The position numbers and the translations under genes are program-made. Source: Escherichia coli (GTDB taxonomy: Bacteria > Pseudomonadota > Gammaproteobacteria > Enterobacterales > Enterobacteriaceae). From it: 64,000 nt of DNA. The stretch lies in the NCBI RefSeq assembly GCF_003018255.1, contig NZ_CP027440.1; one strand, 5' to 3'. The notes under the pieces are model-generated. The model was not told the origin of the DNA, ran no database searches, and saw only the letters and a list, made by a program, of their open reading frames with translations. Below, piece by piece: positions 48,241 to 55,121 of this stretch (position 1 is its first letter; each line of letters opens with the position of its first letter).

Positions 48241-48762
48241 TTAGTTGCTTTCCAGCATGTGAATAATCTGGTTTGCAACCACTTTAGCGCTTTGATCATC
48301 AGTACGAATGGTCACGTCGGCAATCTCTTCATACAGCGGATTGCGTTCATTGGCCAACGCTTCCAGAACTTCACGCGGCGGTGTTTCAACGTGCAGCAAC
48401 GGGCGTTTTTTATCACGCTGCGTGCGTGCAAGTTGCTTTTCGATGGTCGTTTCAAGATAAACGACAACGCCACGAGCGGAAAGACGGTTACGCGTTTCAC
48501 GGGATTTCACAGAGCCGCCGCCAGTAGCCAGCACAATACCCTGTTTCTCGGTCAACTCATTGATGACCTTTTCTTCGCGATCGCGGAAGCCTTCTTCGCC
48601 TTCTAAATCGAAAACCCAGCCCACATCAGCTCCGGTTCGTTTCTCAATCTCTTGATCGGAATCGTAAAATTCCATATTGAGTTGTTGAGCTAACTGGCGC
48701 CCAATAGTGCTTTTTCCGGCACCCATAGGCCCAACCAGAAAGATATTGCGTTTCTCTGCCAT
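48241..48762 (-). CDS. aroK: Shikimate kinase I
   Basis: ATG at 48760-48762 ([25 protein letters not shown]..., 173 aa); the ORF-track 240-aa version is an upstream extension. Confidence 0.95.
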
Positions 48763-49162
48763 TTTTTCGGTACTACTAAGACTATTCGTTAATGATAAAC
48801 CCGCTTCGCTCAGAGAGCGCCGCAGGACATGAACTGAAACCTCATAAGATATTGCGAGAGTCAGACTGAAAATTATCTCAATACTCCAGCGGGTTTGGCA
48901 ACTGAATAAATCACCCATCCCTCTGCATATCTGGTCGCTGCAAGCGCGCTGCCTTGCTACCACCGCTCTGGCGATTAATCACCGGGTAAGATTAGCGTAA
49001 AAAAGACAGCAAAATGCCGCCTGAATGATAAATCATCATCATGGAACGCAGGCAGCGAAGAGCACCAACTCTCAAATCGGTACTCCTTGTATGCTAAATA
49101 CCTGCGCGCGTCAAATAGATGAAACACGTTCAGCGTAAAAACATTACCGCTTTTACGGCTGT

Positions 49163-50401
49163 TTACTCACTGGAAACCAGTCGTGGCGTGATAAACACCA
49201 CTAACTCGCGTCGTTCATCTTCTTTTCCGTCATGACGAAATAATTGCCCGAACCAGGGAATGTCGCCAAGCAACGGTACGCTATCCTGACCCGATTTATT
49301 TTTACGGGTAAAAATGCCGCCCAGCGCCAACGTTTCTCCGCTTTTGACCTCGACCTGCGTTTCGATCTCCTGCTTATCAATCGCCAACACTTCGCCATCG
49401 GCCTGCTGTAGCACCTGCCCCGGAACGTTCTGGCTGATGTGTAATTTCAGCCGGATGCGACCTTTTTGTAACACCGTGGGCGTAACTTCCATCCCCAGGA
49501 CGGCCTCTTTAAATTCCACCGACGTCGCGCCACTTTCCCCGCTGGAAACCTGATATGGAATTTCGCTCCCCTGTTTAATGCTGGCAGGCTGAAGATGTGA
49601 GGCCAGCAGACGCGGACTGGCGATAATATCCAGCTGCTGTTTTTGTTCGAGCGCGGAAAGCTCAAGATCCAGTAAACGTCCGTTGATGCGTCCAATGTTA
49701 AAACCGACATGCGTTGTCGCCGTCGCTACGGAGAGGTCGCTGCCAAGCGTGGTGACTTGCCCAACGCCACCAGCTTGCTGCGCATCAGCCAACGTCCATT
49801 TCACGCCTAACTCACGCAAACTTTTTTCATTAATGGTGACAATATGCGCCGACAGCTCAACCTGCCCGACCGGCAGATCCATTTGCGCTACCCACTGTTC
49901 AAGCGCGCTTAACGCCGTTTTGTTATCTCGCAGCAAAAGGCGATTGGTGCGTTTATCGACGGTCATACTCCCTTTGGCACTCAGTAGCTTCTCCCCGGCT
50001 TTCGCCAGTTCTCCCGCGTCGGCGTATTGCAGGGTTATACTGCGATTTTCCAGCGGCAGATTTGCCTGCGCCCGCGCCTGCTCCGCCTCCTGACGGGCGA
50101 TATTGTCATTCTGCCAGGCAACGGAATGCACCGAGAGAATGTTGCCCTCCTGGCGCGTTATCAATCCGGCGCTTTTCACTACAGTTTGTAGTGCCTGCTT
50201 CCAGGGAACGTCAGTTAAATGTAACGACACCGTACCGCTGACGTCTGGCGAAACCACCAGGTTCAACTTCTCCTGTTCAGCCAGCGCCTGCAACACCTGA
50301 GCTACCGGAACGTCATCCACCATCAGCGTCACTTTTTGCGGCTTTGCCGCCTGTACGCCGGGTATAAGCATCAACAGTAGTGCGGCTATCCATTGCTTCA
50401 T
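49163..50401 (-). CDS. hofQ: Secretin (PilQ/ComE-like) of DNA-uptake/type IV pilus machinery
   Basis: 412-aa with signal peptide MKQWIAALLLMLIPGVQA and C-terminal secretin domain. Confidence 0.9.
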   Translation of the reverse strand: MKQWIAALLLMLIPGVQAAKPQKVTLMVDDVPVAQVLQALAEQEKLNLVVSPDVSGTVSLHLTDVPWKQALQTVVKSAGLITRQEGNILSVHSVAWQNDNIARQEAEQARAQANLPLENRSITLQYADAGELAKAGEKLLSAKGSMTVDKRTNRLLLRDNKTALSALEQWVAQMDLPVGQVELSAHIVTINEKSLRELGVKWTLADAQQAGGVGQVTTLGSDLSVATATTHVGFNIGRINGRLLDLELSALEQKQQLDIIASPRLLASHLQPASIKQGSEIPYQVSSGESGATSVEFKEAVLGMEVTPTVLQKGRIRLKLHISQNVPGQVLQQADGEVLAIDKQEIETQVEVKSGETLALGGIFTRKNKSGQDSVPLLGDIPWFGQLFRHDGKEDERRELVVFITPRLVSSE

Positions 50402-50717
50402 TTGTATCTCCTTGCCGTTGCCACAACCAGTGTGGCGGTTCGCAGTTTGTCCCGGTTCCCAGCGTTAGTGCGTCTGGCGTCAGCTGTAAAATTGTCCAGC
50501 CGTTTTCCAGCACGTCGTTTTGCTGCACCCGTCGCCATTTTTTTTGCCCGTCTTTTATTACACCGATGATGCGCTCACCTCGCCCTACCATCCCCTGATA
50601 GCGCCACTGGCTAAGTTCGCTAATCCGGCATAGATCTTCCGGCGGTTTAAAAGGGTCACGCATACCGGTTAAAAGGCACAATGTAATACCTGCCAACAAC
50701 CAGCGTTTAACCCTCAT
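50313..50717 (-). CDS. hofP: PilP-like pilus assembly protein
   Basis: Start taken at ATG 50715-50717 (MRVKRWLLAG..., 134 aa); 3' end overlaps hofQ 5' end by 89 nt. Confidence 0.7.
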   Translation of the reverse strand: MRVKRWLLAGITLCLLTGMRDPFKPPEDLCRISELSQWRYQGMVGRGERIIGVIKDGQKKWRRVQQNDVLENGWTILQLTPDALTLGTGTNCEPPHWLWQRQGDTNEAMDSRTTVDAYTRRTGGKAAKSDADGG

Positions 50718-51147
50718 GCGGCGTCTCCAGTTGTAGCGTGAACAAAAGGTCATCACCTTCCACGCTTAACGAAAAACGGCTCACGCTGACGTTGCGCTCT
50801 GCCAGCCGTGTAAATGCCGACGGCACTGCTTCCCACAGCGTTTTCAACGCCAACTCACCTCCCTGCGCGGATGGATGCCAGTAAACCAGTTGCGCGCCGG
50901 ATAACTGAAAATCCAGTGGCGAAAAGGGCAGCGTTTTTTCCTCGCTGAAGGGAGTGGTGTCAACCAGGCGATACAGTGCGGCCCACTGCTGGTGATGACT
51001 TGCCCGTAGTCGAATTAATGCGTCGCTCTCTTCATGGTGTGTCGATGACAGAAAAATGAGCGTAACTAACATCAGCAACCAGACTGCCCAGCAAAGCTGG
51101 CGGAGGCGGGGTGATGTGGCGAACCACCAGTCAAAGAGCATGTCCAT
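50707..51147 (-). CDS. hofO: PilO-like pilus assembly protein
   Basis: 146-aa with single N-terminal TM helix. Confidence 0.8.
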   Translation of the reverse strand: MDMLFDWWFATSPRLRQLCWAVWLLMLVTLIFLSSTHHEESDALIRLRASHHQQWAALYRLVDTTPFSEEKTLPFSPLDFQLSGAQLVYWHPSAQGGELALKTLWEAVPSAFTRLAERNVSVSRFSLSVEGDDLLFTLQLETPHEG

Positions 51148-51670
51148 CGCTAACCTTCCTTGTTAACTGATACTCAAATTGCCAGCGTCCCTGCGCATCC
51201 TGCTGCGTGGCCCCCCGCTGATTGAGATGAAAAGATGCATCCTGGCGGAGTGACGTTTCCAGCGCGTTTAACGCGGTAATGCTTGTTGTCAGCCCCTTGA
51301 TCTCCAGCGTACCTTGCTGCCAGCTTATCGTTGTCAGCCAGGCATGTTCGGGTAAAAGCGCCGCCAGTGCTTCCAGCGCAGATTGCCAGTCACGGGTAAA
51401 TTGTCGCTGGAGCTGCCTTTGCAAACGCTGTTCGCGTAACTGCTGGCGTTCCAGCAAACGTGGTTTCGTTATCTGTAAGCTGCGGGCGAGTTGTTGTTCC
51501 GCCTGAAGCAAAACGGTGTCTACGCGTGCTTCGGCGTTGCTTGTCAGACGCAGTATTAGCGTTATCCCGACAGCCAGCAGCAGAGGCGCAACGAACATCA
51601 GCAACCAGAAACGCAGAAAAGCGGTCCGGCGTTGCTGTCGCCAGGGCAAAAAATTAATTGGCGGGTTCAT
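51131..51670 (-). CDS. hofN: PilN-like pilus assembly protein
   Basis: 179-aa with N-terminal TM helix and coiled-coil. Confidence 0.8.
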   Translation of the reverse strand: MNPPINFLPWRQQRRTAFLRFWLLMFVAPLLLAVGITLILRLTSNAEARVDTVLLQAEQQLARSLQITKPRLLERQQLREQRLQRQLQRQFTRDWQSALEALAALLPEHAWLTTISWQQGTLEIKGLTTSITALNALETSLRQDASFHLNQRGATQQDAQGRWQFEYQLTRKVSDGHAL

Positions 51671-52449
51671 CAGTACGCCTTCCCTAGCGCCAGCCCCAGC
51701 GCGATGGCAAAGTCTCCACCTGGCGGCGGTAGCGGCGGCTGACGAACAGAAACCGCCTCCCAGGGATCAAATCCGCCTTCGCCACATATCGCGACGCTTT
51801 CGGGATCAACGGATAACGCTGCCGCCAGCTCCTTCGCGCTAGTCATCCCCACCGCCAGTTTGCGCCCCCAGCGATAGCGCGTCGCCCACAGCCACTGTTC
51901 GTTATCACGCCAGGCCAGACATTGCTGATGAGAAGGTAAAAAAGGCAGGAATCGCTGTAATGCACTGGCATCCGGGGTGATCGCGCTAACATGAACACGC
52001 AACCTTTCTGCCAGAGTAAGCAGCGTTGCCAACTCTTTGCTTTGCGCGGCAGTCACGTTATAGGCGGGACTGAGTGAGTCTTCGCTGTAATCGAAGCGCA
52101 GGGAGTCCGGATCCATATCCAGCTCGCGGGCCATCGTCCCGGACAGCCAGGCCGTTTGCTCCCGCTCACCAAGGGACATCGACGGACGTGGAAATGACCG
52201 CTGTAATGTGCGACTGGCGGGAAACGCCAACATAATGTGATGACGCTGCGGCAGTTCGCGACTCCACGGTAACAACGTTTTAGCCAGCCGCTGCACATCA
52301 ACAATCCGCCCATCTTTGATAATGTCGTTCTCCAGCGGCAACCGCCACCAGCGTTGCAAAAAGCATTCTTTTGTGCCCCGCACGATCGCAACCGCTACCG
52401 CTTCTTGCTGTTGTAAATGCAAACCAATTTGCCAGATCTTAAATGCCAT
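51670..52449 (-). CDS. hofM: PilM-like (actin-like ATPase fold) pilus assembly protein
   Basis: Start taken at ATG 52447-52449 (MAFKIWQIGLHL..., 259 aa). Confidence 0.82.
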   Translation of the reverse strand: MAFKIWQIGLHLQQQEAVAVAIVRGTKECFLQRWWRLPLENDIIKDGRIVDVQRLAKTLLPWSRELPQRHHIMLAFPASRTLQRSFPRPSMSLGEREQTAWLSGTMARELDMDPDSLRFDYSEDSLSPAYNVTAAQSKELATLLTLAERLRVHVSAITPDASALQRFLPFLPSHQQCLAWRDNEQWLWATRYRWGRKLAVGMTSAKELAAALSVDPESVAICGEGGFDPWEAVSVRQPPLPPPGGDFAIALGLALGKAY

Positions 52450-52568: not shown

Positions 52569-55121
52569 GTGAAGTTCGTAAAGTATTTTTTGATCCTTGC
52601 AGTCTGTTGCATTCTGCTGGGAGCAGGCTCGATTTATGGCCTATACCGCTACATCGAGCCACAACTGCCGGATGTGGCGACATTAAAAGATGTTCGCCTG
52701 CAAATTCCGATGCAGATTTACAGCGCCGATGGCGAGCTGATTGCTCAATACGGTGAGAAACGTCGTATTCCGGTTACGTTGGATCAAATCCCGCCGGAGA
52801 TGGTGAAAGCCTTTATCGCGACGGAAGACAGCCGCTTCTACGAGCATCACGGCGTTGACCCGGTGGGGATCTTCCGTGCGGCAAGTGTGGCGCTGTTCTC
52901 CGGCCACGCGTCACAAGGGGCGAGTACCATTACCCAGCAGCTGGCGAGAAACTTCTTCCTCAGTCCAGAACGCACGCTGATGCGTAAGATTAAGGAAGTC
53001 TTCCTCGCGATTCGCATTGAACAGTTGCTGACGAAAGACGAGATCCTCGAGCTTTATCTGAACAAGATTTACCTCGGTTACCGCGCCTATGGTGTCGGTG
53101 CTGCGGCACAAGTCTATTTCGGTAAAACGGTCGACCAACTGACGCTGAACGAAATGGCGGTGATAGCCGGGCTGCCGAAAGCGCCTTCCACCTTTAATCC
53201 GCTCTACTCAATGGATCGTGCCGTCGCGCGGCGTAACGTCGTACTGTCGCGGATGCTGGATGAAGGGTATATCACCCAACAACAGTTCGATCAGACACGC
53301 ACTGAGGCGATTAACGCTAACTATCACGCGCCGGAGATTGCTTTCTCTGCGCCGTACCTGAGCGAAATGGTGCGCCAGGAGATGTATAACCGTTATGGCG
53401 AAAGTGCCTATGAAGACGGTTATCGCATTTACACCACCATCACCCGCAAAGTGCAGCAGGCCGCACAGCAGGCGGTACGTAATAACGTGCTGGACTACGA
53501 CATGCGCCACGGCTATCGCGGCCCGGCAAATGTGCTGTGGAAAGTGGGCGAGTCGGCGTGGGATAACAACAAGATTACCGATACGCTGAAGGCGCTGCCG
53601 ACCTATGGTCCGCTGCTGCCTGCCGCAGTCACCAGCGCCAATCCTCAGGAAGCGACGGCGATGCTGGCGGACGGGTCGACCGTCGCATTGAGTATGGAAG
53701 GCGTTCGCTGGGCGCGTCCTTACCGTTCGGATACTCAGCAGGGACCGACGCCGCGTAAAGTGACCGATGTTCTGCAAACGGGTCAGCAAATCTGGGTTCG
53801 TCAGGTTGGCGATGCATGGTGGCTGGCGCAAGTGCCGGAAGTGAACTCGGCGCTGGTGTCGATCAATCCGCAAAACGGTGCCGTTATGGCGCTGGTCGGT
53901 GGCTTTGATTTCAATCAGAGCAAGTTTAACCGCGCCACCCAGGCACTGCGTCAGGTAGGTTCCAACATCAAACCGTTCCTCTACACCGCGGCGATGGATA
54001 AAGGTCTGACGCTGGCAAGTATGTTGAACGATGTGCCAATTTCCCGCTGGGATGCAGGTGCCGGTTCTGACTGGCAGCCGAAGAACTCACCACCGCAGTA
54101 TGCCGGTCCAATTCGCTTACGTCAGGGACTGGGCCAGTCGAAAAACGTGGTGATGGTACGCGCAATGCGGGCGATGGGCGTCGACTACGCTGCAGAATAT
54201 CTGCAACGCTTCGGCTTCCCGGCGCAAAACATTGTCCACACCGAATCGCTGGCGCTGGGTTCAGCGTCATTCACCCCAATGCAGGTGGCGCGCGGCTACG
54301 CGGTCATGGCGAACGGCGGCTTCCTGGTGGACCCGTGGTTTATCAGCAAAATTGAAAACGATCAGGGCGGCGTGATTTTCGAAGCGAAACCGAAAGTAGC
54401 CTGCCCGGAATGCGATATTCCGGTGATTTACGGTGATACGCAGAAATCGAACGTGCTGGAAAATAACGATGTTGAAGATGTCGCTATCTCCCGCGAGCAG
54501 CAGAATGTTTCTGTACCAATGCCGCAGCTGGAGCAGGCAAATCAGGCGTTAGTGGCGAAGACCGGCGCGCAGGAATACGCACCGCACGTCATCAACACTC
54601 CGCTGGCATTCCTGATTAAGAGTGCCTTGAACACCAATATTTTTGGTGAACCCGGCTGGCAGGGTACTGGCTGGCGAGCAGGTCGTGATTTACAACGGCA
54701 TGATATAGGCGGAAAAACGGGTACCACTAACAGTTCGAAAGATGCGTGGTTCTCGGGTTACGGTCCGGGCGTTGTGACCTCGGTCTGGATTGGCTTTGAT
54801 GATCACCGTCGTAATCTCGGTCATACAACAGCTTCCGGAGCGATTAAAGATCAGATCTCAGGTTACGAAGGCGGTGCCAAGAGTGCCCAACCTGCATGGG
54901 ACGCTTATATGAAAGCCGTTCTTGAAGGTGTGCCGGAGCAGCCGCTGACGCCGCCGCCGGGTATTGTGACGGTGAATATCGATCGCAGCACCGGGCAGTT
55001 AGCTAATGGTGGCAACAGCCGCGAAGAGTATTTCATCGAAGGTACGCAGCCGACACAACAGGCGGTGCACGAGGTGGGAACGACCATTATCGATAATGGC
55101 GAGGCACAGGAATTGTTCTGA
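52569..55121 (+). CDS. mrcA: Penicillin-binding protein 1A (bifunctional transglycosylase/transpeptidase)
   Basis: GT51 motifs (IATEDSRFYEHHGVD) and transpeptidase SxxK/KTG (GSNIKP..., KTGTT); GTG at 52569 gives the 850-aa form; in-frame ATG at 52545 is an alternative. Confidence 0.95.
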   Translation: MKFVKYFLILAVCCILLGAGSIYGLYRYIEPQLPDVATLKDVRLQIPMQIYSADGELIAQYGEKRRIPVTLDQIPPEMVKAFIATEDSRFYEHHGVDPVGIFRAASVALFSGHASQGASTITQQLARNFFLSPERTLMRKIKEVFLAIRIEQLLTKDEILELYLNKIYLGYRAYGVGAAAQVYFGKTVDQLTLNEMAVIAGLPKAPSTFNPLYSMDRAVARRNVVLSRMLDEGYITQQQFDQTRTEAINANYHAPEIAFSAPYLSEMVRQEMYNRYGESAYEDGYRIYTTITRKVQQAAQQAVRNNVLDYDMRHGYRGPANVLWKVGESAWDNNKITDTLKALPTYGPLLPAAVTSANPQEATAMLADGSTVALSMEGVRWARPYRSDTQQGPTPRKVTDVLQTGQQIWVRQVGDAWWLAQVPEVNSALVSINPQNGAVMALVGGFDFNQSKFNRATQALRQVGSNIKPFLYTAAMDKGLTLASMLNDVPISRWDAGAGSDWQPKNSPPQYAGPIRLRQGLGQSKNVVMVRAMRAMGVDYAAEYLQRFGFPAQNIVHTESLALGSASFTPMQVARGYAVMANGGFLVDPWFISKIENDQGGVIFEAKPKVACPECDIPVIYGDTQKSNVLENNDVEDVAISREQQNVSVPMPQLEQANQALVAKTGAQEYAPHVINTPLAFLIKSALNTNIFGEPGWQGTGWRAGRDLQRHDIGGKTGTTNSSKDAWFSGYGPGVVTSVWIGFDDHRRNLGHTTASGAIKDQISGYEGGAKSAQPAWDAYMKAVLEGVPEQPLTPPPGIVTVNIDRSTGQLANGGNSREEYFIEGTQPTQQAVHEVGTTIIDNGEAQELF

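Follow-up and report, generated by a model that had tools for sequence, protein, structure and literature searches.

The hofP reading frame overlaps the hofQ signal-peptide codons in Escherichia coli, with a composition bias at hofQ synonymous sites

The Escherichia coli genes hofP and hofQ, which encode a predicted PilP-type periplasmic protein and an outer-membrane secretin, share 89 nucleotides (nt) of coding sequence in which the C-terminal tail of HofP is read from the signal-peptide codons of HofQ. We analysed this junction in a 64,000-nt stretch of the E. coli chromosome (NCBI RefSeq assembly GCF_003018255.1, contig NZ_CP027440.1), referred to here as the window, where hofP and hofQ are the last two genes of hofMNOPQ, the well-known E. 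coli type IV pilus/DNA-uptake operon. The long overlap recurs across enterobacterial genera, its length is reproduced by neutral resampling of hofQ codons, and the third positions of hofQ codons within it are depleted of bases that would place Cys or Tyr in the HofP tail. We conclude that the tail is probably translated, tolerated and policed at hofQ synonymous sites, an arrangement that amounts to dual coding of composition.

The hofP and hofQ ends appear genuine

The original prediction had reported five co-directional genes with overlaps of 1, 17 and 89 nt, and had reasoned that the longest of these implies either that hofP is in truth shorter or that the shared stretch is under constrained dual coding. 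Coordinates and RefSeq agree exactly with this layout, and RefSeq gives identical gene ends, including the 89-nt overlap, in both the source strain and K-12 MC1061. The elements of the junction are as follows.

49163–50401, minus strand: hofQ (412 amino acids, aa), outer-membrane secretin with Pfam Secretin, Secretin_N and STN matches
50313–50717, minus strand: hofP (134 aa), ATG start; signal peptide at residues 1–19 and a PilP/GspC-type beta domain at about residues 20–103
50313–50401, minus strand: doubly coding stretch of 89 nt; hofQ codons 1–30, comprising the signal peptide and a V-D-D motif
50313–50315, minus strand: hofP stop TGA, formed by hofQ codons Asp29-Asp30 (GAT GAC)
50408–50413, minus strand: hofQ Shine–Dalgarno (SD) sequence AAGGAG, with a 6-nt spacer to the ATG at 50399–50401; inside hofP codons 102–104
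50316–50408, minus strand: HofP C-terminal tail, residues 104–134, beginning at the hofQ SD; AlphaFold (AF2) predicted local distance difference test (pLDDT) score <55

The signal peptide claimed for the hofQ start is borne out. The HofQ N-terminus has the classical signal-peptide-like form MKQWIAALLLMLIPGVQA/AK, AAGGAG stands ahead of its start codon, and the protein aligns end to end (1–412/412) with the NCBIfam HofQ model NF007851 at 856 bits, in addition to matching the PilQ model TIGR02515 at 449 bits (cut-off 284). HofP matches the Pfam HofP family, also end to end. A frameshift or an earlier stop that would end hofP before hofQ begins was looked for and not found: the hofP frame contains no in-frame stop upstream of 50313–50315 and no frameshift.

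A large survey deemed co-directional overlaps exceeding 60 base pairs (bp) to be essentially all mis-annotations and found no real case above that length (PMC2478687), against which hofP/hofQ stands at 89 nt in E. coli and at 80–98 nt in most genera. On that precedent the overlap might be an annotation artefact in which hofQ starts downstream, for example at Met27 or Val28, where hofQ has an in-frame ATG and GTG, or in which hofP ends earlier by frameshift or recoding. A start at codon 27 or 28, however, would remove the signal peptide that the secretin needs, and it is the annotated start that carries AAGGAG and from whose first residue the HofQ model aligns. Every orthologous hofQ examined has an SD-like motif, a signal peptide and a start codon, which is GTG in five loci and otherwise ATG, and the extended length is common to HofP orthologues. 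Within the species, the 3.5-kilobase stretch is 100% identical to that of E. coli JNE23-011, and among 5,426 complete E. coli genomes it shows 97–98% identity to 5,425. These observations make an artefact highly improbable; neither gene end appears mis-called, and the 89-nt overlap appears genuine.

The long overlap is shared across enterobacterial genera

To follow the junction in relatives, we used 54 loci from a one-genome-per-species scan with the HofP alignment and added 11 loci by exact-protein look-up (Klebsiella, Cronobacter, Pantoea, Mixta, Duffyella and other Enterobacterales), and overlap was scored in 61 of 68 related loci. hofP ends 56–140 nt inside hofQ in 56 of these 61, most commonly at 89, 92 or 98 nt, and the long overlap is found in Escherichia, Salmonella, Citrobacter, Enterobacter, Lelliottia, Trabulsiella, Klebsiella, Cronobacter and Pantoea latae. 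The two frames keep a constant relation, hofP codon position 1 falling on hofQ codon position 3. The hofP stop is usually a TGA drawn from the conserved Val-Asp-Asp/Glu codons at the start of mature HofQ, and HofP length clusters at 124–138 aa in many genera. In Enterobacter sp. ENT03 (locus L028, positions 3317–3456) GAC GAC encodes the HofQ Asp-Asp pair, which leaves no TGA at the usual place, and hofP ends instead at a TAA after 140 nt, the longest overlap seen. The same-strand overlap is thus kept across enterobacterial genera with genus-specific length, and it is this agreement among orthologues on which we judge it real.

Short overlaps define the alternative state of the junction. Leclercia, a Duffyella-like locus and three further lineages have a 4-nt ATGA overlap between hofP and hofQ, a Pantoea lineage has an 8-nt overlap, and in Mixta calida hofP stops just before the hofQ ATG. 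Comparison of close relatives indicates that the long and short states are toggled by an insertion or deletion in the SD-to-ATG spacer that is not a multiple of three; counted after GGA, this spacer is 8 nt in L061, 10 nt in L043 and 7 nt in E. coli. Within the Erwiniaceae (L060, L062, L065 and L067) Pantoea latae has a long overlap of 74 nt, and Mixta calida, Duffyella gerundensis and a Pantoea multigeneris-like locus have a short one or none. The presence of both states in this one family indicates that the state has switched more than once.

Two loci are irregular in single strains. In Escherichia albertii NBRC 107761 (L044:3001–3102) an in-frame TAA interrupts hofP after roughly 34 codons and hofQ is intact, so that hofP is probably a pseudogene in that strain. 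In Citrobacter koseri NCTC10786 (L008, about 3390–3544) hofQ homology begins only at residue 76 and no upstream in-frame start is present; hofQ appears to be disrupted there, or the assembly to be in error.

Signal-peptide codons account for the overlap length

A stop in the hofP frame requires a hofQ codon ending in T followed by a codon starting with AA, AG or GA. Codons with these initial pairs encode Lys, Asn, the AGN-coded Ser and Arg, Asp and Glu, and there are almost none in the n- and h-regions of the signal peptide; the first real opportunities for hofP to stop therefore fall past the cleavage site. As a neutral model, we resampled hofQ synonymous codons according to hofQ's own codon usage. 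The median first stop in the resampled sequences coincides with the observed codon, and the probability that the frame remains open at least as far is about 0.55–0.66 (mean 0.55). Since resampling reproduces the observed stop position, the length of the overlap needs no selective explanation. Chance suffices for the existence of a 29-codon open frame, but not for its conservation or its base composition. In the minus-one frame, signal-peptide codons offer hardly any stops, and read-throughs of this kind consequently become long.

Residue-specific depletion at hofQ synonymous sites

T at hofQ third positions (T3), which are the first bases of hofP codons, occurs in hofQ codons 2–28 at 0.23 of expectation in an analysis that leaves out positions at which T creates a stop. 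Every other 27-codon window along hofQ lies at 0.72–1.40 of expectation, and A and G are enriched at third positions within the overlap. Matched hydrophobic segments from the same loci, comprising the membrane segments of HofN, HofO and MrcA and the signal peptide of HofP, give T3 values of 0.79–0.96.

Read in the frame of the HofP tail, the depletion differs by residue. Cys codons number 0 against 80.2 expected and Tyr codons 4 against 42.2; TCN-coded Ser falls from 64.8 expected to 32, and Phe stands at 8 against 10.9. Downstream of the hofP stop, Cys and Tyr in the same frame are at 0.86 and 0.99 of expectation. In a redundancy-reduced set of 19 representatives whose signal peptides are <=50% identical, T3 amounts to 21 against 78.3 expected and Cys to 0 against 27.6, and 19 of 19 lie under expectation (sign test, 4e-6). 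Seven lineages with a hofP/hofQ overlap of 4–8 nt or none (189 codons) provide natural controls, in which the same hofQ codons yield 36 T-initial codons against 40.6, 7 Cys against 10.1 and 8 stops against 8.0. Column-wise synonymous diversity at conserved four-fold sites is also lower in the overlap (0.34 compared with 0.55 elsewhere), a reduction that is suggestive and, at six sites only, too small to stand alone. Synonymous-site constraint is therefore present within the overlap and is residue-specific in the hofP frame. Together with the open frame kept in most loci, this constraint favours dual coding of the two options first proposed, and a shorter hofP finds no support.

Three sources of the bias were considered and set aside. 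Avoidance of stops alone is rejected, as the depletion persists without stop-risk positions. RNA structure is argued against by a single-sequence fold across the junction with z = -0.34 and by a 14-species consensus that is essentially without conserved structure or covariation there. A general effect of gene 5′ ends or signal peptides on codon choice is argued against by the matched segments and by the short-overlap hofQ genes, both of which lie near expectation.

A broader form of the last idea is that the bias serves a nucleotide-level need of hofQ, in its initiation region, mRNA stability or signal-peptide codon choice, and has nothing to do with HofP. Gene 5′ ends and signal-peptide regions are known for unusual codon usage, HofQ Ile5 is specified by the rare codon ATA in 45 of the 47 loci that have Ile there, and the enrichment of A and G at third positions would fit such a need. 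Against it, the junction lacks conserved RNA structure, T3 is normal in the HofP signal peptide and in three other hydrophobic N-terminal segments, and the signal-peptide regions of short-overlap hofQ genes are normal in T3, Cys and stops. The depletion moreover follows the residue that results in the hofP frame and not simply T. We consider an explanation confined to hofQ very unlikely.

Two individual codons illustrate how silent choices in hofQ alter HofP. At hofQ codon 5 (50387–50389), the hofP-frame reading is Ser with ATA, Cys with ATT and Arg with ATC. At hofQ codon 12 (50366–50368), this strain has CTT and K-12 has CTG; the change from CTG to CTT is silent in hofQ and turns HofP residue 119 from Asp into Tyr, one of the four Tyr found in 56 tails.

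HofP is predicted to have a folded core and a disordered tail

We used an AF2 model of HofP built from an 81-sequence alignment to place the overlap on the protein. Core residues 20–103 are modelled with pLDDT 80–94, and their predicted fold corresponds to that of PilP and of the HR domain of GspC, the type of beta domain that pairs with the N0 domain of secretins. The low-confidence tail that follows is 18–46 residues long across loci and about 30 in E. coli. In 21 representatives the tails are rich in Gly, Ala, Arg and Asp, are without Cys or Trp and have a mean net charge of about 0. Two parts of the tail can be traced directly to hofQ: tail 'NEAMDS' corresponds to hofQ MKQWI, and the tail end is set by hofQ VTLVVDD. 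In the folded part, C30 and C92 are invariant in the 81 HofP sequences.

A basic and possibly DNA-binding tail was entertained on account of Lys exceeding Glu at some sites and was dropped given the near-zero mean charge. Odd-length E. coli HofP variants in the protein database (78–223 aa) seem to stem from artefacts of assembly or frameshift, or from alternative start calls, and are uninformative.

A tail probably translated and kept harmless

In the mechanism that we favour, HofP is a periplasmic protein of the PilP type, and its reading frame has no stop at about residue 103, where the folded domain finishes. The hofP frame, one base ahead of hofQ, then crosses the hofQ SD, start codon and signal-peptide codons as far as the TGA at Asp-Asp, the length of this excursion being a passive result of how rarely signal-peptide codons allow a stop. 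The tail of about 30 residues would be made, disordered and free to vary in sequence, and selection on hofQ third bases would keep it without stops, Cys or aromatic residues. An extra Cys in a disordered periplasmic tail could plausibly be harmful, and the invariant pair C30 and C92 suggests a rationale for excluding any further Cys from it.

The position of the hofP stop also bears on how hofQ may be translated. Short overlaps of 4 nt or 1 nt (ATGA/TGATG) that serve termination–reinitiation coupling likewise join adjacent genes of one operon that encode parts of one complex (Huber et al. 2023, PMC10666635). One such junction is hofM/hofN, and ATGA also occurs between hofP and hofQ in several relatives, unlike E. 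coli, in which hofP terminates 89 nt beyond the start of hofQ, a distance too great for local reinitiation. Reinitiation in E. coli drops steeply with distance (PMC10666635), and with the hofP stop so remote, translation of hofQ probably begins de novo at the strong SD of that gene, which ribosomes translating hofP would cross. The short overlaps at hofM/hofN, hofN/hofO and hofO/hofP (1, 17 and 11 nt) would be compatible with coupled translation.

Several observations weigh against this account. The tail sequence is unconserved beyond the stretches fixed by the hofQ start region and the VTLVVDD motif, so that conservation of the tail across species holds for its open frame and fails for its residues. 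Leclercia, Mixta calida, Duffyella, a Pantoea lineage and others lack the tail, which therefore cannot be essential. Under laboratory conditions there is hardly any expression of the operon (PMC1635313). The expected codon frequencies were derived from hofQ itself and not from genome-wide tables, and the short-overlap control comprises only seven loci, one of which (L061) is itself low in T3. Owing to the shared ancestry of the loci, the nominal P values overstate independence; redundancy among the loci was reduced to address this relatedness. A tail that is both unconserved and absent from several lineages makes the constraint look like one of keeping it harmless and not of keeping a function; most likely, then, the tail is translated and tolerated, kept harmless and not essential.

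Poor expression, loss of the tail in repeated instances, its unconserved and predicted disordered sequence and the success of neutral resampling in reproducing the overlap length would suit passive read-through, in which the tail is neutral junk that is either ignored once made or made so rarely as to be of no account. What passive read-through leaves unexplained is the overlap-specific loss of T3, the absence of Cys and the tenfold shortfall of Tyr, with Phe near expectation and with both the same-locus and the short-overlap controls at about 1. We judge it quite unlikely on these grounds. A stronger alternative holds that the tail is a selected disordered extension overprinted on the HofQ signal sequence, and that translation over the hofQ ribosome-binding site sets the ratio of HofP to HofQ by unfolding or occluding that site. 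This, too, we regard as unlikely; were it true, hofP/hofQ would be a bona fide functional co-directional overlap well over 60 bp.

Comparison with known systems

The closest comparisons for hofMNOPQ are the PilMNOPQ alignment subcomplex and secretin of type IVa pili (Pseudomonas, Neisseria and Myxococcus) and ComABCDE of Haemophilus influenzae. HofP is short, has a Pfam family to itself and lacks a lipobox Cys shared by its orthologues, and for this last reason it probably differs from PilP in not being a lipoprotein. HofP of most Enterobacteriaceae also differs from the PilMNOPQ system in bearing a disordered tail encoded within hofQ, and HofM differs in falling under Pfam PilM thresholds here. 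As an overlap, hofP/hofQ is marked by a downstream gene whose overlapped part is a signal peptide and by a constraint that acts on composition and not on sequence.

The locus, its gene names and the overlap are already known from RefSeq, and as both operon and overlap are standard annotation, genome annotation is unchanged by our analysis. We found no paper on the hofP tail, the overlap or its selection signature among those that could be searched, and the comparative result, a dual-coding footprint in this conserved co-directional overlap of about 90 nt, appears to be undescribed in them. hofP/hofQ provides a clear and easily tested case of a conserved same-strand overlap of this size in E. 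coli, and illustrates that an overprinted tail that is itself unconserved can still mark the synonymous sites of the overlapping gene through exclusion of Cys, Tyr and stops. In practical terms, any allele or construct in which hofQ codons 1–30 are deleted or synonymously recoded, such as the Keio hofQ allele or a codon-optimised version, alters HofP too. We see this as a modest but clean point for overlapping-gene research and a minor one for pilus biology.

Operon layout, regulation and neighbouring features

All five ORFs (open reading frames) of the operon are on the minus strand, within 49163–52449 of the window. The three genes upstream of hofP are as follows.

51670–52449, minus strand: hofM (259 aa), putatively PilM-like, at the head of the operon; ORF and RefSeq 'DNA utilization protein HofM' have identical ends
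51131–51670, minus strand: hofN (179 aa), PilN-like; ORF and RefSeq, with Pfam PilN PF05137 scoring 37.7 bits (cut-off 22.8)
50707–51147, minus strand: hofO (146 aa); ORF and RefSeq, with Pfam HofO PF25319 (EspM-like domain) at 89 bits

AAGGAG precedes the hofM ATG, and the hofM stop and hofN ATG share one base (TGATG). The 11-nt hofO/hofP overlap had been omitted from the original prediction. Its assignment of PilM-, PilN-, PilO- and PilP-like proteins and a secretin holds for HofN as PilN, for the PilP-type fold of HofP and for HofQ as secretin; HofO belongs to the HofO family, and the sole Pfam match of HofM is T2SSL at 17.1 bits, under its cut-off of 25.5. HofM has no NCBIfam match, and its orthologues at other loci carry precomputed PilM_2 matches. 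The M-N-O-P-Q order lies between mrcA and aroK in every locus fetched, with the secretin gene last.

Published work ties the operon to Sxy- and CRP-dependent (CRP-S) control: yrfD(hofM)–hofQ shows weak CRP binding, CRP dependence and 16-fold Sxy induction (PMC1635313), and Sxy-dependent DNA uptake and transformation require hofQ (PMC3330819). Two further features flank the operon.

52600–52725, minus strand: CRP-binding EMSA fragment from the yrfD(hofM) promoter, as published; the PMC1635313 primers map exactly there
49146–49159, minus strand: terminator-like hairpin followed by a T-run, just 3′ of the hofQ stop; a weak consensus match and a candidate only

Upstream of hofM we found no strict CRP-S consensus; the weak CRP-S-like matches (TGCGA-N6-TCGCA) at 52699–52714 and 52618–52633 carry three mismatches each and lie at the ends of the published fragment. 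That fragment lies wholly inside the coding sequence of the divergent mrcA (plus strand, start 52545), so that the regulatory sites of the operon overlap the first 60 mrcA codons. At the other end, terminator-like sites in the region are no more frequent than in shuffled sequence. Beyond hofQ, a 240-aa GTG-started ORF at 48241–48963 contains aroK, for which RefSeq annotates only the 173-aa AroK, and the upstream extension of this ORF is probably non-coding.

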